DNA from: a virus
Direction: 5' to 3' (one strand)
Length of the DNA stretch: 64,000 bases
Virus record (IMG/VR): IMGVR_UViG_3300019889_000008
Location: 9,827-73,826 of that record
Of this stretch, positions 30,551 to 41,628 are shown piece after piece; positions within the stretch are counted from its first letter, which is position 1, and each line of letters opens with the position of its first letter. The notes under the pieces are model-generated. The model saw nothing but the letters and a program-made list of their open reading frames with translations. It made no database searches and was not told the origin of the DNA. Made by a program: the position numbers and the translations under genes.

Positions 30551-32140
30551 TTACCGCCGGATGAAGTCGGCGATGACCGCGGGCGTATCGGCATCGAACC
30601 CCACCACGTCCAGCATGCCGCCATCGTTCGGGTCCGCGATCGTGAACCCGTTCGAAGTCATCGCGACGACCGCCAGCTTGGCAGCGATGCCGGTCTTGGT
30701 CCGGTACAGTTGCAGGGCCTGGACCGGGTGCATCCGGCCCGCATAGGTCTCCGCGTCCGTGTAGATCACGAAGGCGTCGACCTCCAGGCCGTGCTCCAGC
30801 GCATAGAGCATCGGAAGCGAGCAATCGGTGCTCTGGAACCCGAGCGTGCCCATGTAGCGGACCACGTCGCCGAGCCGCTGGCGGGGCGAGATCGCGAGCG
30901 GCATGAAGCCGCGCGAGAAGCCCATCAGGTGATAGTTCTGCTCGGTCGCCGCCGTCACGAGCGCCATCGCCGCCGCGCCCTCACGAGCGGTCAGCGAGGT
31001 GCCGGCGATCTTGTTCCCCTCCATGGAGCCCGAGACGTCGATGCCGAGCAGGAGGCGCTTGCCGGTCGGCTCGATGGTCCGGAACGCCGCATAGAAGCCG
31101 GCATCGAGCGCATCGACGATGCTCTGCACCGGCGCCCACGTGAGGCTCCCGCGCTCGCCATGGCCGCTCGCATAGGTCCGCTGCGCCAGCAGCAGGGCGA
31201 GCGGATGGACGCGGGCCGCCTTCAGCGCCGCCTCATCCTGCACGGTTCGGCAGACATGCATCGCCGCGTCGCCGAGCGGCTTCAGCAGCCCCACGGCCGT
31301 CATCTTGGCCAGCGACCGGATCATCGCCGTGAGCGGCATGCCCGAGAGCAGCGCAGCCCAGACCTCGACGCTGTTCAACGCCGGAATCGGCACCGCCTCG
31401 CGCGGCAGAGAATACGTCCGCACCAGAGCCGCGATCTCGCGCGACGGCACGCCCTCGACGTTCGCCTCCTCATAGCCGCGCACGATCGCCGGCAGGGCCT
31501 CTGCCGTCTTCTCCCGGCCGCAGATCCAATCGAACAGGGCACGCCGCTCCGCATCGTCGACCGCAGTCAGCGGGTGCGCGAGCCGCAGCAGATCTCGATG
31601 CGCCCAGCCGTCGCGCTGGCGATACTTCACGGCCTGGAGCGCCAGCCTGTCGATCGGCTTGCGGGCATACCAGTCGGCGAAGGCGCGCTTCGTGCCACGG
31701 CCCCAGCCGCCGAAAGCCTGAACAAAGTCGGCGGCGTGGAACAGATGGGTTCCAGTGCGGGCGACCTTGTGGAGCGCATCGCCGGCCGCGCGGCGGGTCC
31801 GGTCATCGCCGAGCTTCATTGCCATGGCGAGCGCGAACAGCGCCGGGTCGTTCTTCGGCGCCCGGCCCTCGACGCTGATCGCCACGATGGTCTCGACCGC
31901 GCGCAGGCCATCTGCCGCGATGCAACGCTCGACGGCGTCCGCGCTCTCACGGGTCAGCTTGCCCTCGTTGATGTAGAAGGTGCCGCCCTCGGAACCGAGG
32001 ATCAGGAACCGCTCCAGACGCATCCAGTCGTCGACCGGGAAGGCGTAGCCCCCAGCGGAGTTCGGCACGGTGCCCGCGATCGGCTCGGTCTGCGGGGTGG
32101 CTCCGCCGCGCCCGATGTGCCGGGCGAGGTACGACGTCAT
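30551..32140 (-). CDS. rsr: Ro60 / TROVE-domain RNA-binding protein (Rsr orthologue)
   Basis: NSAGGYAF..RFLILGSEGGTFY, KYRQRDGWAHRDLLRLAH, RVHP, vWA DVSGSM, TDCSLPM, DVVGFD; GGAGGG RBS. Confidence 0.96.
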   Translation of the reverse strand: MTSYLARHIGRGGATPQTEPIAGTVPNSAGGYAFPVDDWMRLERFLILGSEGGTFYINEGKLTRESADAVERCIAADGLRAVETIVAISVEGRAPKNDPALFALAMAMKLGDDRTRRAAGDALHKVARTGTHLFHAADFVQAFGGWGRGTKRAFADWYARKPIDRLALQAVKYRQRDGWAHRDLLRLAHPLTAVDDAERRALFDWICGREKTAEALPAIVRGYEEANVEGVPSREIAALVRTYSLPREAVPIPALNSVEVWAALLSGMPLTAMIRSLAKMTAVGLLKPLGDAAMHVCRTVQDEAALKAARVHPLALLLAQRTYASGHGERGSLTWAPVQSIVDALDAGFYAAFRTIEPTGKRLLLGIDVSGSMEGNKIAGTSLTAREGAAAMALVTAATEQNYHLMGFSRGFMPLAISPRQRLGDVVRYMGTLGFQSTDCSLPMLYALEHGLEVDAFVIYTDAETYAGRMHPVQALQLYRTKTGIAAKLAVVAMTSNGFTIADPNDGGMLDVVGFDADTPAVIADFIRR

Positions 32141-32167
32141 GATCCGTCCCTCCATGCTGGCGTGGGT

Positions 32168-32300
32168 GGTGCGAACGTGTTGTTTGGCAACCGTCGAGGT
32201 GCTCTACCACTGAGCTACGGCAGGCTTTCGCCCGACGACGGGATTCGAACCCGCGGCCACCCGCTTACGAGGCGATAACGATTACCAGTCGGCTCGCACC
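32168..32300 (-). ncRNA. yrlA: YrlA-type Y RNA (tRNA-mimic domain)
   Basis: Terminal stem GGTGCGA/TCGCACC; T arm (GCGGG TTCGAAT CCCGT) lies 5' of D arm (GCTC AGTGGTA GAGC); acceptor-like stem closed by GAAA; directly upstream of rsr. Confidence 0.9.
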
Positions 32301-33270: not shown

Positions 33271-33347
33271 TGGAGGCAGGAAGCGGATTCGAACCGCTGA
33301 CCTTCAGGTTATGGGCCTGACGAGCTGCCGGGCTGCTCTATCCTGCC
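33271..33347 (-). tRNA. tRNA-Met(CAU), initiator-like body with G1-C72, C33 and U73
   Basis: GGCAGGA TA GAGC AGCCCGGCA GCTC G TCAGG CCCATAA CCTGA AGGTC AGCGG TTCGAAT CCGCT TCCTGCC T CCA. Confidence 0.92.
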
Positions 33348-34217: not shown

Positions 34218-35015
34218 CTATTCCTCGCCGGCCTTCATGGCTTCCACCATGAGCGCGGTCAGATCCCTTTTGCGGCTCGGCTTGCACTGGACCTTGATCA
34301 GGTCGACAGGGCCGCCGGGCACCTCGTCGTTGAACACCCCGACCACGATGCGTCCCGTGAACCATGCGAAGGTGTCCAGGTCGGTCCGGCCGGCATACAG
34401 CATCGGGCCCTCGGCGAACTGGTGATGCCCATGAACGACATGCCTGTCGCCGTGGCCCCGCTCGTCGTCGTCATCGTAGAGCTTCCACATGAGCACATGA
34501 GGGCTCTGCTCACCGAGCGAGACAGTGGGGTCGACGCCGGCATGGACGAACACCCGATGTTGAGTGACGCAGATCATCGGAAGGCCGTCGAGCCAATCGA
34601 GGTGCTCGACCGGCACGATCGCCCGGTCGGCTATCTCGCCGACCTTCTGGCCGTATGAGATCAGCGTCGCCCCGCCGCCGTTGACGATCCACCACCCGAG
34701 GTCGGCTTTCCCGGATGCGCATTGGACCATGATGTCCTCGTGGTTCCCCTTGAGGCAGATCCAAGTCCAGCCCGGCGACGGCCCGGCCATCAGCCGGTCG
34801 ATGATCTGCTTGCTCTGCGGGCCCCGGTCGACATAGTCGCCCAAGAAGACGATCGTGCCAGGCCGCTTTGCATCGGCCTCGATGGCGGCCAGCGCCGCCT
34901 CCAGGATGTCGAGGCGTCCATGCAGGTCCGCGATGGCATAGGTGTAGCCCCGCGGGGCCTGGAGGCCCGCCAGCAGCCGGTCGCGCATTTCGTGTGCGGA
35001 GATGGTCTTGGGCAT
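34218..35015 (-). CDS. Metallophosphoesterase (Ser/Thr phosphatase, NinI/PphA-like)
   Basis: DLHG, GDYVDRG, GNHE, HAG and HGH motifs. Confidence 0.92.
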   Translation of the reverse strand: MPKTISAHEMRDRLLAGLQAPRGYTYAIADLHGRLDILEAALAAIEADAKRPGTIVFLGDYVDRGPQSKQIIDRLMAGPSPGWTWICLKGNHEDIMVQCASGKADLGWWIVNGGGATLISYGQKVGEIADRAIVPVEHLDWLDGLPMICVTQHRVFVHAGVDPTVSLGEQSPHVLMWKLYDDDDERGHGDRHVVHGHHQFAEGPMLYAGRTDLDTFAWFTGRIVVGVFNDEVPGGPVDLIKVQCKPSRKRDLTALMVEAMKAGEE

Positions 35016-35038
35016 CGTCTCACCGGTGTGCAAAGATC

Positions 35039-35186
35039 GCCGCGGGCCGGGCGCTAATCCGGCCTCCCTCTTGAGCCGACCTGATTCTCTTCGGCCGGGC
35101 CCGGCCTCCAAGGATAGGGCTCCCGAACCTGTACAAAGGTGGGGCGCCTGAGACGGCGGCATGTCTGCTTCCCACGCTGCCGCGGC
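35039..35186 (-). ncRNA. tRNA-shaped structured RNA with non-canonical loops
   Basis: GCCGCGG/CCGCGGC closing stem; D-like hairpin GCGTG GGAAGCAGA CATGC; T-like hairpin GCCGG ATTAGCGC CCGGC. Confidence 0.5.
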
Positions 35187-35234
35187 CACGCCATCATATC
35201 CGAGATCGGGCACAGATCAATGCCCATTGCGTGG

Positions 35235-35323
35235 TGGTGGGCGCCCGAGGATTCGAACCTCACGCGGCCGACCCGTCTCGGATTGCGCGCCGGGTTTACA
35301 GCCCGGTGACGGGAAAGGCGCCC
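35235..35323 (-). tRNA. D-armless tRNA-Tyr(GUA)-like RNA
   Basis: GGGCGCC TTTCCCGTCA CCGGG CTGTAAA CCCGG [27-nt variable arm] TGAGG TTCGAAT CCTCG GGCGCCC ACCA. Confidence 0.8.
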
Positions 35324-35499
35324 CGAGAGGTTTGAGCGGGGAATACACACGGCAGCCCTCCCCGCCCGACACAGCTACCTCAGACCGCGTCCGGCCCTTG
35401 GACCACTGCGGCGCCCCCACCTCGGAGGGACCGCTGCTGAAGCCTACCCATCTGCCGAGAGAAGGCTTCCATCTCGCACTGCCACCTAGCCCGCATGGG

Positions 35500-35570
35500 A
35501 TCGGGCGGCTGGATTCGAACCAACGTTGCAGAGACCAAAGCTCTGTGTCCTACCGCTAGACGACGCCCGA
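35500..35570 (-). tRNA. tRNA-Gln(UUG)
   Basis: TCGGGCG/CGCCCGA acceptor; CAGAG CTTTGGT CTCTG anticodon arm; GTTGG TTCGAAT CCAGC; U73 followed by CCCA. Confidence 0.9.
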
Positions 35571-35579
35571 GCGGGAGGA

Positions 35580-35668
35580 TGGCGGAGGGCGGAGGAATCG
35601 AACCCCTAGCGCTGTCAACGCTACCCCGGTTTTCGGGACCAGTTGCCGGCCATTCAGCGGCGCCCTCC
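35580..35668 (-). tRNA. (8/4) allo-tRNA / tRNA-Ser(CGA)
   Basis: 8-bp acceptor GGAGGGCG/CGCCCTCC; 4-bp T stem GGGG/CCTC; G73 CCA; long variable arm; anticodon loop CCCGAAA. Confidence 0.88.
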
Positions 35669-35670
35669 AT

Positions 35671-35759
35671 TGGCGGAAGGGGAGAGGATCGAACTCTCGC
35701 GAGGACTGGCCCCGGCTCCCGGATAGCAACCGGGCGCATTACCGCTCTGCCACCCTTCC
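35671..35759 (-). tRNA. tRNA-Ser(GCU), canonical 7/5
   Basis: GGAAGGG/CCCTTCC GCCA; CCCGG TTGCTAT CCGGG; long variable arm. Confidence 0.93.
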
Positions 35760-36138
35760 AAAATCAGAAGGATGATCGACTCGATTGCTGTCGATATCGC
35801 AGGGCGTGGGTCATGTCGGCCATGTAGCACGGCGCCTTCGCGGAGTCTAGATCGGCCAGCAATCAGCCCGCCGGTCTCGGAGACTAGCGCCCCGCCCAAA
35901 AACGGCAATTATGCATTCGTTTTTGGATGCTGTCGTCTTAACCATTCGAGCCAAGAAATTATGAACAATCCCATATACAACATGGGCGGCGAGGTTGGTG
36001 GCGATCCGGTTGTCGATCAACTCGCCATCCTGCTACTCGTCGCATTGGTCGTGATCTTCATCGTCGGATATTGCTGGTGGTCGCGACGACTTTCCAGCCG
36101 TGGCGACCGCCCCCCGAAACCATGAGATCTCCGCTGGG

Positions 36139-36366
36139 TTAAGAGGGGGGCAACATTTCGTTGCGGAGCTTCCTCACGGTCTCCGCGAGCCTGTCTGCGG
36201 TCTCGCGGGCGGTGACCATCCGCTCCTCCATCCAGAGCAGCCGGTGGCACGCCTCCTCGACAAGCGAGAACCATCCCTGCTGTGGTGCATCGGCGGACGT
36301 CCGCACGAAGTCTAGGACCGCTTGCGCGTCGAACGTGTTTCGGTCCTGCTCGGGGAGCGTTCCCAT
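36139..36366 (-). CDS. Hypothetical protein (matches an internal domain of 25172-25756)
   Basis: LPEQDR..FDA..APQQGWFSLVEEACHR. Confidence 0.6.
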   Translation of the reverse strand: MGTLPEQDRNTFDAQAVLDFVRTSADAPQQGWFSLVEEACHRLLWMEERMVTARETADRLAETVRKLRNEMLPPS

Positions 36367-36827
36367 GGTGATCTCTCCTGGGGCGGCCGGAAGACGATGA
36401 CTTCAGCGGCCAGCGGGTTGAGGTAACGGAAGATCTCGGCGGCCACCAAGAGCCACGGCAGGCCACCCTTGCCGCAGCCAAGGGCTGGGACGCCGATGGA
36501 ATTGATGCCAAGCCGCTCGATCGTTGGGGCCAAGTGGCTCAACCCCCAGCCGATCCATTCGGGCCGGCTGGGCTTGCGCCACTCCCGCTTCGTCGGGAAA
36601 TGGATGACCCACCGCGGGTGCGAGCCGGAGCCACGGTCGAATTCGTGCAGGCGCCCCGGCTGCAACTGGCCAATGGCGCAGGCGGCCATGTAGGAGCGGC
36701 TCGCCTCGGGAAAGCGGTGCCGGAACTCCTTCGCCAGCCCAGCGCCCATCACGCCCTCGCAGTTCACGGGGTTGACCAGGGCCTCGGCGCCGCAGGCGAA
36801 GATGTCGCCGTCGCTGTATCGGATCAT
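36312..36827 (-). CDS. Macrodomain protein, DarG-like ADP-ribose hydrolase
   Basis: GDIF..ALVNPVNCEGVMGAGLA, IHFPTKREWRKPS, SIGVPALGCGKGGLPW. Confidence 0.9.
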   Translation of the reverse strand: MIRYSDGDIFACGAEALVNPVNCEGVMGAGLAKEFRHRFPEASRSYMAACAIGQLQPGRLHEFDRGSGSHPRWVIHFPTKREWRKPSRPEWIGWGLSHLAPTIERLGINSIGVPALGCGKGGLPWLLVAAEIFRYLNPLAAEVIVFRPPQERSPWERSPSRTETRSTRKRS

Positions 36828-36828
36828 C

Positions 36829-38081
36829 CTATCGCCTCCTCGGCGCCCGATGCCCGAGCGCCTTATAGAGCGCATCGCGGGTCTCGACGTCGTCTGGCCC
36901 GTACCGGAGCGAGTTGTTAAAGTGAGCCCCAAGCACCAGAGCAATCGCTCGAACTCCGGGCTCCAAATAGACGTACTGGACCCATCCGAAGACGGGCCGA
37001 CACGGGGTAGGAGGTTTTGGCAACCTCTCTTCCGTGATCCAGGTGGCCACTGCCGTCCCGCTCCGCCCGAGAAGCTTGGCCAACTCGGGCGGCGTGAACG
37101 TGAGCAATGATGCCCATTCGTCGTCGACATTGACCTCACGGACACTGCCGAAATCCATCAAGCGATCAAGTCGCAGCCGGGGATCATCGACGAACACGCC
37201 CGCACGCTCTCGATATGAGTCGCGAGCGCGCTCGGCGGTTCCAGAGCCATAAGCCTTGCGGCGCCGCCGGTTGTGCTCTTCGCCCCAATAGCGATCCTTC
37301 CGCTCTTCAGGCGTCAAGCCGCCGCGCGGGCCTGACCCGATGCCCAAGGATCGCCCGGGATGTTTCCCGTCTCGTTTCATCAGCGGGTGCTCAGGGGAAC
37401 ATACCGCTTGCTCGACACGTCGTACCGCATCAGGTCGGGGCACCGCGCTTTGATCTGTGACAGATCATGCGAGGCTTGGGCATAGGTGACCTCGCCGATC
37501 CGAACGATGTCGGCGCGGTTCAATGATCCGGTGCGCATGAGATGTTCAACGGCCTTGGCGAGGCGCACACGGACTCCTGGCCGTAGTCCGGCCCATGTCC
37601 CGCTCCCATCGCCGTTGTCACCTTCGGACGCCACGGCATCGCGCGACCGCTCCGCCTCGGTCAGGATCGCAAGAACGTCGGCGATCTTGAGCGTCGTATA
37701 GGTGACGCCAGGGATTGCTGCGTGGCTCTCGACGACCCGACGTATCTCTGCGAGATCGACCATCTCCGGATCAGTCCCGGCAGCCATTCAGATGGTCCGC
37801 TTGCTCGGCCAATCGCGGGGCATGTTCGTCGCCGCCCCCGGCACCTTGGTCGCCGAGGCGAGGTAGTCCATTCGGGTCCGGTCGCGACGGCCCTCGGCGT
37901 CGCGCTCGTTGTCCGACAGCGCGAGCCAAGCCGTCACCATGGCCCGATACACGTCGCCGAGGGTCTCTGGTGCTGGCAAGCCCAGCGCCGCCATACGGGC
38001 GAAGCAGCCGGGCTCCATGTCACAGGCATGCAGCACCATAATGGCGCCGTGCTGCTCGATCGCTTGTTCAACGGTAATCAT
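36829..38081 (-). other. Hypothetical genes 36829-37380, 37380-37787, 37788-38081
   Basis: Coupled ORFs; the first has an HTH-like segment ELAKLLGRSGTAVATWI. Confidence 0.5.
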
Positions 38082-40135: not shown

Positions 40136-41251
40136 TCACCCGACGTCCCGGAAGCGATCCCGCATCTTGCGCGCAACGCCCTTTTGCAGGATCGCCTGCT
40201 GTGCGGCATCGCAATACCGCTGGACCTCGGAGAGGGTCTTGTGGCCCGTCACGGTCATGATCTCGTGCGGGGTGCAGCCGGCCTCGGCCAGCCGCCGGGC
40301 CGCCGCCTTGCGCAGGCCATGCGACACGCACCGATCGGGAAGCCCGGCGGCATCGAAGTTGTCGGCCATCCAGCGGCTCAGGGTGGTCGGGGCGAACTTG
40401 CGGTGGATGCCGTTGAGGAGAATGTGCTGGTGGATGTCGGTCGGCACCTTCTCCCGCGCGCAGGTTTCCTTCCACGCATCGAGCGCCTCGATCAGTTCGG
40501 GCTCGCAGTTGATGTTGAGCGTCCGATCGTTCTCGGCGTCGTCGCCCTTCTCCTGCTGCACCGCCATGGTGGCCCGGCGATGACCCTCCTTGTCGGTCCA
40601 CCACGTGATCTCGGGCAACTTCATCTTGGCCACGTCGACCACCCGCTGGCCGCTGTAGAGGAACAGGGCGAAGGCCGTCCGCTCCCGCGTCCCAAGCTTC
40701 CACCGCTTCTCGTACTGCGCGATCTCCGCCTCGTTCCAAGTGTGGTGACTGCCGATCTCCAACTTGTCGACGCCCATGGTCGGGTCGCGGTCGATCCACC
40801 CGCGCCGGATCACAAACTTGGTCAGTTGCCGCATCACCTTGAGCAGGTTGTTATGCTGGCCGGGGCGATCGTGGTAGGTCGCGAGGAACTCCTCGATCTT
40901 GGCGACCGGGGTGCCCCGCACCGACCGGTGGCCATGGAGCCGGCAGAAGATGTTGAGCAGCCGGGTGGTCTTCTTCTTGGCCTCCTCGCCCTGCGCGCCG
41001 AGCCCGACCTTGATGAAGTCGGTCTTGGCGGCGTTCCACGTCCGGTCGCCGCTGCTGGTCTTCACGACCTCGGTCAGCGGCGTCGCCTGGGGCGCGAAGC
41101 CGAGCGCCATGGTGTACTGCCCCATGTATTCGGGCGAGCCCGGCTTGCCGATCAGCTTCACCGCCTTCTGCTTGGGATACCGGAAGTAAGACCGCTCCTT
41201 GCCGTGCCGGTCGGTGAAAGTGTTAACGTATTTCAAATTTACGGTTGTCAT
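40136..41251 (-). CDS. int: Tyrosine integrase
   Basis: LFLYSGQRVVDV, HGLRKAAARRLAEAGCTPHEIMTVTGHKTLSEVQRY; N-terminal DRHGKERSYFR. Confidence 0.95.
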   Translation of the reverse strand: MTTVNLKYVNTFTDRHGKERSYFRYPKQKAVKLIGKPGSPEYMGQYTMALGFAPQATPLTEVVKTSSGDRTWNAAKTDFIKVGLGAQGEEAKKKTTRLLNIFCRLHGHRSVRGTPVAKIEEFLATYHDRPGQHNNLLKVMRQLTKFVIRRGWIDRDPTMGVDKLEIGSHHTWNEAEIAQYEKRWKLGTRERTAFALFLYSGQRVVDVAKMKLPEITWWTDKEGHRRATMAVQQEKGDDAENDRTLNINCEPELIEALDAWKETCAREKVPTDIHQHILLNGIHRKFAPTTLSRWMADNFDAAGLPDRCVSHGLRKAAARRLAEAGCTPHEIMTVTGHKTLSEVQRYCDAAQQAILQKGVARKMRDRFRDVG

Positions 41252-41267
41252 TATGATCTCCGGGTTA

Positions 41268-41359
41268 GGACACGTATCGGTGCCAGGGCACACATTAGTG
41301 CCTTCGCCCGGAGATCGGGAAGGACTATTTTTACAAACCAAGGGCACCGGGGCGTGCCC
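41268..41359. promoter_or_regulatory. Three GGGCAC-N6-GTGCCC-type palindromes upstream of int
   Basis: 41268-41285, 41286-41303 and 41342-41359 (perfect). Confidence 0.6.
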
Positions 41360-41628
41360 TAGGCGTCGTCCCATGACGTGTCGCGGACCGGCGCCGCCAG
41401 ATCCCAGACGCCACCGACATGCGGGATGGCCTTGTATGCCGCCCGCAGTTCGTCGGCATCCCAGGTCATGACCCCGCCTACCAGCCTGGCGGGCGGCATC
41501 TTCCGGTCCTTGACCATCCGCTGGAAATTCGACACGCCGATGCCGACATAGGCCGCGGCCTCGTTGATCTGGAGGCCGAGCAGGCACGGCAGCCGGTCCA
41601 GGGCTTCAGCGCGGGCAACCTTCTTCAC
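41359..41628 (-). CDS. xis: Excisionase/AlpA-like HTH protein
   Basis: EAAAYVGIGVSNFQRMVKDRKMPPAR..WD; directly upstream of int. Confidence 0.8.
   Translation of the reverse strand: MKKVARAEALDRLPCLLGLQINEAAAYVGIGVSNFQRMVKDRKMPPARLVGGVMTWDADELRAAYKAIPHVGGVWDLAAPVRDTSWDDA

Follow-up and report, generated by a model that had tools for sequence, protein, structure and literature searches.

The gene at positions 35580 to 35668 on the minus strand of the window (the whole 64,000-nucleotide stretch of viral DNA that we analyzed) is, judged by its sequence, a real and intact phage serine tRNA gene. It is 89 nt long with an encoded CCA and takes the form of an (8/4) tRNA-Ser(CGA): compared with the usual 7/5 form, its acceptor stem is longer by one pair (8 bp) and its T stem shorter by one (4 bp). 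We consider it more than a chance fold because it gives a subthreshold tRNA-Sec score, has homologues in many genomes, and belongs to a family with covariation in every helix. Most likely, it functions as a regular decoding tRNA-Ser(CGA) despite its unusual shape, and we infer its expression, charging, and decoding.

RESULTS AND DISCUSSION

Structure and detection of the gene

All parts of the gene lie on the minus strand. The 5′ strand of the acceptor stem (nt 1 to 8, GGAGGGCG, 35661 to 35668) pairs with 35584 to 35591 (CGCCCUCC) in 8 bp, all of them Watson-Crick. At positions 8 and 9, a CC linker takes the place of U8-N9, leaving no U8; linker and D arm together occupy 35645 to 35660, the D arm having the stem GCUG/CGGC and the loop AAUGGC (G18 and G19, with C as Y20). 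Two A residues separate the D arm from the anticodon arm (35626 to 35642), which has the stem CUGGU/ACCGG and the loop CCCGAAA, with the anticodon CGA at 35633 to 35635. Both C32 and C33 (the latter at 35636) are in this loop. A GG linker and a long variable arm, the 17-nt hairpin UAGCGUU-GAC-AGCGCUA, follow at 35605 to 35625 and abut the T stem. The T arm (35592 to 35606) has the 4-bp stem GGGG/CCUC with one G-U pair and the loop UUCGAUU. The 3′ strand of the acceptor stem, the discriminator G73 (35583), and CCA (35580 to 35582) complete the gene at 35580 to 35591. All 25 base pairs of the family and three additional pairs of the variable (V) stem are intact in this copy.

An earlier reading of this DNA from its letters (here, the sequence-only reading) had described an 8-bp acceptor, a 4-bp T stem, no U8, C33, and G73. 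Each of these features is present, and the sequence quoted there is the reverse complement of 35580 to 35668. The description of the D arm as Sec-like and compact is loosely true, but this copy has a 4-bp stem with a 6-nt loop and no fifth A14:U20 pair, since A14 and C20 cannot pair.

Standard searches passed over the gene. ARAGORN reported three other tRNAs in the window and not this one, Rfam at gathering thresholds over the window did not report it, and the Rfam tRNA model (RF00005) gave no match at 35580 to 35668 even at E ≤ 10. A permissive Rfam scan gave a tRNA-Sec match of 33.2 bits (E = 5e-4), which is below the gathering score of 47. Our family model, R1, scored the gene at 94.2 bits, with the sequence itself in the R1 training set. 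Single-sequence folding was uninformative here (z = −1.3), and the structure of minimum free energy (−40.1 kcal/mol) was not a cloverleaf.

The phage and its tRNA cluster

The window (GC, 66%) comes from a 73.8-kb IMG/VR virus record that encodes tape-measure, tail-fiber, primase/helicase, and methyltransferase genes as well as a tyrosine integrase (40136 to 41587). The record represents a roughly 74-kb tailed, integrase-bearing phage, the host of which is probably a soil alphaproteobacterium. An alphaproteobacterial host is moderately supported by the best tail-fiber matches, which are weak (24 to 28% identity to phages of Sinorhizobium, Rhizobium, Paracoccus, and Agrobacterium), and by the chromosomal tRNA copies that resemble the gene most among the matches listed, those of Reyranella and Ancylobacter.

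The gene sits in a co-oriented cluster in the order tRNA-Ser(GCU), 2 nt, 8/4 gene, 9 nt, tRNA-Gln(UUG), a 174-nt spacer, and an irregular element at 35238 to 35323. The tRNA-Ser(GCU) upstream (35671 to 35759, minus strand) is a canonical 7/5 tRNA found by both ARAGORN and the Rfam tRNA model (56.3 bits); the 2-nt gap (AU) is counted from its CCA, which confirms the neighbor named in the sequence-only reading. Downstream, the tRNA-Gln(UUG) (35498 to 35570, minus strand) is syntenic with locus L009 and is probably cotranscribed with the 8/4 gene. Upstream of the cluster is a weak sigma-70-like promoter match, by consensus only (9/12; 35908 to 35936, minus strand). On the same strand, the cluster is flanked by genes for a calcineurin-like metallophosphoesterase (34218 to 35213) and a macrodomain protein (36312 to 37145), both partly conserved in L009.

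Covariation supports the 8/4 fold

We examined the fold in two alignments. The first, A2, holds 37 distinct viral sequences aligned with plain MAFFT. The second holds 69 distinct sequences fitted to R1, which favors the structure; the answer from A2 agrees with it. In A2, the 8/4 structure paired 97.7% of cells, compared to 41 to 55% in slid-partner controls. In the R1 alignment, 98.8% of cells were paired, with compensatory changes in 20 of the 25 pairs.

The eighth acceptor pair was formed in 36 of 37 sequences in A2 (GC16/AU13/UA6/CG1) and in 68 of 69 in the R1 alignment (GC39/AU22/UA6/CG1), where it took all four Watson-Crick forms. In the R1 alignment, all eight acceptor pairs either covaried or were conserved, and the anticodon stem covaried at all five pairs. 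The V-stem pairs all covaried, with up to five pair types each, and the pair closing the V arm was formed in 37/37 sequences of A2 in four pair types. The T stem was 100% paired, with compensatory changes in two of its four pairs (GC/AU and GC/CG/AU). The CC linker and D arm were invariant in homologues selected by pattern; for the D arm, this invariance in A2 is partly an artifact of the pattern used in the search. Second copies whose D stem is GCCG/CGGC or GCGA/UCGC preserve pairing. Relatives with U20 can form the fifth pair A14:U20, giving 5 bp and the tetraloop AUGG, while variants with A20 cannot.

It is barely conceivable that the gene is an ordinary 7/5 tRNA-Ser misdrawn, with position 8 unpaired and five pairs in the T stem: some annotation pipelines do label the mycobacteriophage homologue plainly as tRNA-Ser and ARAGORN reports 119 of 165 family members as such (among the matches listed), but 28 of 37 sequences fail to form the extra T-stem pair required by this fold (the window copy has A.C), acceptor pair 8 is formed nearly throughout, and the fully covarying V-arm pair would also be disrupted. 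Single-sequence energies barely separate the drawings (−37.3 kcal/mol for 8/4 versus −35.1 to −35.7 for 7/5 or 7/4, a difference of ∼2 kcal/mol). Comparative data settle the fold, and the 8/4 structure is, by the measure of its compensatory changes, under selection. The claim of an (8/4) tRNA with serine identity and the anticodon CGA is thus supported by covariation, namely by the four types of pair 8 (n = 69) and the 28/37 sequences without the 7/5 pair, and the outcome named beforehand as fatal to it, a favored 7/5 fold, is contradicted on comparative grounds. A canonical class II tRNA-Ser (7/5, U8, and U33) was likewise ruled out by covariation, the CC linker, C33, and the lack of an RF00005 match.

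Relation to known tRNA classes

The main text of Mukai et al. 2017 (NAR 45:2776, PMC5389517) describes 8/4 and 9/3 tRNAs found among the false positives of tRNA-Sec searches. Among them are (8/4) tRNA-Ser species with serine anticodons in bacteriophages, proteobacteria, and rumen Clostridia, including the tRNA clusters of alphaproteobacterial phages, and those with Y20 are classed as (8/4) allo-tRNAs; 8/4 and 9/3 allo-tRNAs efficiently insert serine in Escherichia coli. By its described features, the window gene belongs to this (8/4) tRNA-Ser/allo-tRNA class as set out in that main text. It shares with it the 12-bp 8/4 branch, the long V arm, G73/U73, a serine anticodon, Y20, a location in a phage tRNA cluster, and detection as a subthreshold tRNA-Sec match. 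Position 20 is C in the window copy and C or U in 37/37 sequences of A2, in which the search pattern allowed any base there. The serine UCN anticodons, the wobble base that tracks GC content, and the use of UCG, all taken up below, point to the same class. However, the "long D stem with tetraloop" of the published main text differs from the window copy, and 5 bp with a tetraloop is available only to the U20 relatives.

The gene therefore adds a member to a class described in 2017 and leaves the picture of tRNA structure unchanged. What is new here is the breadth of the family, the frequent adjacency to tRNA-Ser(GCU), the recurrent C33, and the finding that a link to Ro60 is not general. The main-text passages of Mukai et al. 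consulted here do not mention a C33 loop, pairing with tRNA-Ser(GCU), cyanobacterial arrays, or mycobacteriophages; the term "Mycobacter" is absent from them, and "Actinobacteria" occurs only for tRNA-Sec.

The allo-tRNAs of Acidobacteria (Silvibacterium and Edaphobacter) treated in the same main text resemble the window gene in their 8/4 (or 9/3) branch, long V arm, and serine identity elements. However, they carry Ile, Arg, Asp, Leu, and other anticodons and would recode, whereas the window gene has a cognate serine anticodon, so that no recoding is implied for it. Acidobacterial genomes also carry the exact family of the window gene, with the loop CCUGAAA (among the matches listed). Bacterial tRNA-Sec (Rfam RF01852) shares the 8-bp acceptor, the long V arm, and a small D loop, and it too is first charged by SerRS. 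It differs in having a 13-bp branch (8/5), a 6-bp D stem, the anticodon UCA, and a need for SelA/SelB. A Sec function for the window gene was ruled out by its 12-bp branch, 4-bp D stem, CGA anticodon, and score (33.2 bits, with gathering set at 47).

The family is widespread and often missed

Homologues 79 to 100% identical to the gene were found in 140 phage records, 41 viral contigs, and at least 120 species genomes. The first set came from BLAST against cultured phages, which gave 79 to 80% identity in about 140 Mycobacterium phage genomes; the second came from an IMG/VR scan with the D-arm motif; and the third came from a stricter pattern with one genome per species. These numbers do not sit with the view of the sequence-only reading that the class is rare. 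Members of the 8/4 family are much more common than had been supposed and frequently escape standard tRNA finders.

Among the matches listed, the species genomes are mostly those of cyanobacteria, in which the gene lies within large tRNA arrays (mean, 15.6 tRNAs within 3 kb), and the other carriers are Acidobacteria, alphaproteobacteria, actinomycete metagenome-assembled genomes, and Polyangia. Several of the phage carriers are proviruses. In the long arrays of cyanobacteria (Nostoc, Leptolyngbya, and Oscillatoriales; loci L046 to L165), the gene is an 8/4 tRNA-Ser(UGA) that usually follows tRNA-His(GUG) or tRNA-Arg(ACG) and in most cases lacks an encoded CCA. The available text of a paper on cyanobacterial L-arrays (PMC8421152) does not mention the 8/4 fold and holds nothing specific on its tRNA-Ser, and a full-text literature search for the D-arm motif returned unrelated primers only.

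A canonical tRNA-Ser(GCU) lies within 60 nt of the 8/4 gene at 16 of 45 viral and 11 of 120 genomic loci (among the matches listed). This adjacency recurs in Mycobacterium phages Alice and Yucca and at loci L009, L013, L021, L023, L027, L032, L068, and L086. In Alice (gene 77) and Yucca (gene 84), both Bixzunavirus of cluster C1, the copy is annotated as tRNA-Ser(cga) directly after tRNA-Ser(gct). The 8/4 fold, the D arm, and the order Ser(GCU) then Ser(CGA) are shared with the window gene at 79 to 80% identity. Unlike the window gene, these copies have the loop GUCGAAU (U33, G32, and U38), a C31.A39 mismatch, a shorter V arm, and an actinobacterial host.

None of the fetched mycobacteriophage records annotates its copy as 8/4. 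The copies in cluster M phages Rey, Bongo, and Estes are unannotated; that of Rey lies under a hypothetical open reading frame, and coding sequences are annotated across the tRNA in Rey and Skinny. Of 60 mycobacteriophage records sampled (H33 to H92), 15 label the copy tRNA-Ser, 4 label it tRNA-OTHER, and 41 give no tRNA annotation (e.g., L003:1505-1587). With about two-thirds of the sampled records lacking an annotation, surveys of phage tRNAs will count too few Ser NGA tRNAs, which bears on the claim that mycobacteriophages avoid them (van den Berg et al. 2023, PMC10264068). The recorded host of the 140 mycobacteriophage records is nearly always Mycobacterium smegmatis, apart from a few M. 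abscessus prophages. Cultured phages of this kind make the charging, decoding, and toxin sensitivity of natural 8/4 tRNAs directly testable.

Serine identity and proposed decoding

The identity elements of bacterial SerRS include GGA at positions 1 to 3, C11:G24, G73, and a long V arm, and all of these match the window gene. Across the family, GGA at positions 1 to 3 is nearly invariant, and most homologues have G73 or U73. G18 G19 and the T loop are canonical. The sequence A36-A37-A38 fits the motif for i6A37 modification by MiaA, which is a putative modification here.

Among the matches listed, the anticodon is CGA or UGA (Ser UCN) in 114 of 117 distinct family sequences; of the other three, two have a shifted loop and one has AGA. 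Mean GC was 0.60 at CGA loci and 0.47 at UGA loci (Mann-Whitney p = 3e-12, with relatedness ignored; among the matches listed). Anticodons in the family are thus confined to Ser NGA, with a wobble base that follows GC content. Among the serine codons of this phage, UCG ranks first (36%) and AGC second (27%), and the two serine tRNAs of the cluster, CGA and GCU, match these top two codons. We found no class II synthetase core in the phage.

We consider it quite probable that the gene makes a functional phage tRNA-Ser isoacceptor with a noncanonical 8/4 split between acceptor and T arm, and the tRNA is most likely charged by the host SerRS and reads UCG. In the scheme that we propose, the gene would be transcribed as one cluster with tRNA-Ser(GCU) and tRNA-Gln, and the tRNA would be released by RNase P and 3′ trimming, with CCA already encoded. 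The host SerRS would serylate it by way of the long variable arm, G73, the pairs G1-C, G2-C, and A3-U, and C11:G24. EF-Tu would then carry the tRNA, and it should accept it because the acceptor and T helix come to 12 bp as in elongator tRNAs, not the 13 bp of tRNA-Sec. At the ribosome, the tRNA would read UCG, the serine codon that the phage uses most. The sequence-only reading had called the natural role of such tRNAs unclear. Members with a serine anticodon pose no particular puzzle, since their anticodons and the codon usage are in keeping with ordinary UCN decoding.

C33 and possible evasion of tRNA-targeting toxins

U33 is nearly universal in tRNAs and forms the U-turn of the anticodon loop. 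Because C33 replaces it in the window gene, decoding may be weakened. C33 occurs in 16 of about 115 distinct family members, on several sequence backbones, in the loops CCCGAAA (alphaproteobacterial), CCUGAAA (acidobacterial), CCUGAAC (low-GC phage), and UCCGAAA; the majority (about 86%) combine U33 with an ordinary CUYGAAA loop (all among the matches listed). ARAGORN recovers only one of the C33 members. The phage has a second U33C tRNA, tRNA-Met(CAU) (33274 to 33347, minus strand), with the loop CCCAUAA, C32-C33, and U as its discriminator. Among the other tRNAs of the fetched phage clusters and arrays, C33 is present in 90 of 1,827 distinct sequences (4.9%), concentrated in Leu(GAG), Gly(GCC), and Ile(GAU). 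An unusual loop of another kind (G32, U38, and a C31.A39 mismatch) marks mycobacteriophage copies, 13 of the 37 sequences in A2.

One explanation, compatible with a decoding role, is that the 8/4 shape and/or the C32-C33 loop makes the tRNA insensitive to host toxins or defenses that target tRNAs, so that serine codons would still be translated when the host tRNA-Ser is attacked. Candidate agents are anticodon nucleases of the VapC type and MenT/AbiEii-like nucleotidyltransferases directed at tRNA-Ser. Evasion through mutation of the anticodon loop was proposed by van den Berg et al. 2023 (PMC10264068), who also state that VapC cuts the GA of Ser NGA anticodons and that Ser NGA tRNAs are rarely encoded by mycobacteriophages. 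The recurrence of C33 on different backbones, the C32-C33 of the tRNA-Met, the C33 in other array and phage tRNAs, and the second unusual loop of the mycobacteriophage copies are all consistent with evasion. However, no nuclease or toxin is linked to the host of this phage, and relaxed selection on accessory tRNAs would raise the frequency of C33 too. Since most members have U33 and an ordinary loop, the 8/4 shape itself has no shown link to evasion. We regard evasion as possible but doubtful.

A broader form of this idea, which we hold to be unlikely, is that phages and mobile tRNA arrays carry their 8/4 Ser(NGA) tRNAs as a toxin- or nuclease-proof replacement set for the host tRNA-Ser, above all in the C32-C33 variant that the window gene shares with the phage tRNA-Met, the "avoidance" of Ser NGA tRNAs by mycobacteriophages then being an annotation artifact. 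If so, mycobacteriophages do carry a Ser NGA tRNA, in a shape that tRNA finders often miss. The recurrent C33 of accessory tRNAs is a cheap and testable lead on evasion at the anticodon loop.

The same base could be read as damage, with C33 disabling a decaying or inactive gene that hitchhikes in a mobile tRNA cluster. C33 is indeed a departure from a near-universal feature, many irregular tRNAs occur in accessory arrays, and some allo-tRNA variants were inactive in E. coli according to the main text of Mukai et al. (PMC5389517). Decay is nevertheless improbable: every family and V-stem pair is intact, CCA is present, and the identical C33 loop recurs in at least six other distinct sequences (L007, L009, L024, L032/L068, L086, and L097) with compensatory changes elsewhere.

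Possible roles in lysogeny and the Ro60 module

The tyrosine integrase of the phage raises another explanation, tRNA-dependent lysogeny, in which the phage tRNA would replace a host tRNA-Ser gene destroyed by integration. Such lysogeny is documented in actinobacteriophages (PMC10865867), and several 8/4 carriers are proviruses. We consider this very unlikely for the window gene, as neither attP nor attB was identified and the family also occurs in chromosomal tRNA arrays and in mycobacteriophages of the genus Bixzunavirus (cluster C1), among them one that an abstract calls strictly lytic.

A Ro60 gene (TROVE plus vWA; 30551 to 32155, minus strand) lies 3.4 kb from the 8/4 gene on the same strand. 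Immediately upstream of Ro60 is a YrlA-like match (32198 to 32261, minus strand; 31.5 bits, E = 1.3e-4), which is below the gathering threshold of 69. At a second locus (L023/G019), TROVE is within 1 kb of the tRNA pair. These neighbors would suit a nontranslational, tRNA-like RNA of a Ro60/Y-RNA module, such as a Ro60 ligand or decoy. The co-occurrence of allo-tRNA and TROVE that the sequence-only reading had put forward as a check proved not to be general: of the 41 phage records with an 8/4 tRNA, only 3 contain TROVE, and the closest complete relative, G005, lacks it. The RNA also has a true tRNA topology, with open 5′ and 3′ acceptor ends and GCCA, and its serine-restricted anticodon points to decoding. 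A role in such a module is accordingly a remote prospect. The permissive Rfam scan gave no YrlA match at 35580 to 35668 itself. A Y RNA of the YrlA type, in which the acceptor-like stem is permuted and capped by a loop and the ends form the Ro-binding stem, was ruled out by the open acceptor ends and GCCA.

Other elements near the tRNA cluster

The irregular element at 35238 to 35323 (minus strand) is a second 8/4 tRNA-like gene, with the anticodon loop CUGUAAA (GUA), A73, and CCA. It has only 9 nt at the place of the D arm. The sequence CCCGUC in this linker is the complement of GACGGG, which forms the loop of a 26-nt hairpin in the variable arm, set in a V region of 28 nt. Homologues are present at L009, L176, and L188, and in L188 both sides have changed together (CCCCUC with GAGGGG), one compensatory event in support of a long-range helix.

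The 174-nt GC-rich spacer between tRNA-Gln and this element (35324 to 35497, minus strand) folds no better than its shuffles (z = −0.7). It is an indel, as L009, the closest relative, lacks it and has just 2 nt between the two genes. By eye, it contains a repeated acceptor-like GGGCGCC followed by the D-loop-like AGUGGUCCAAGGG. A DUF3800-IX RNA match in a related viral contig (L007:5452-5518, minus strand), at a distance of about 130 nt from the tRNA pair, scored 41.2 against an Rfam gathering score of 36.8.
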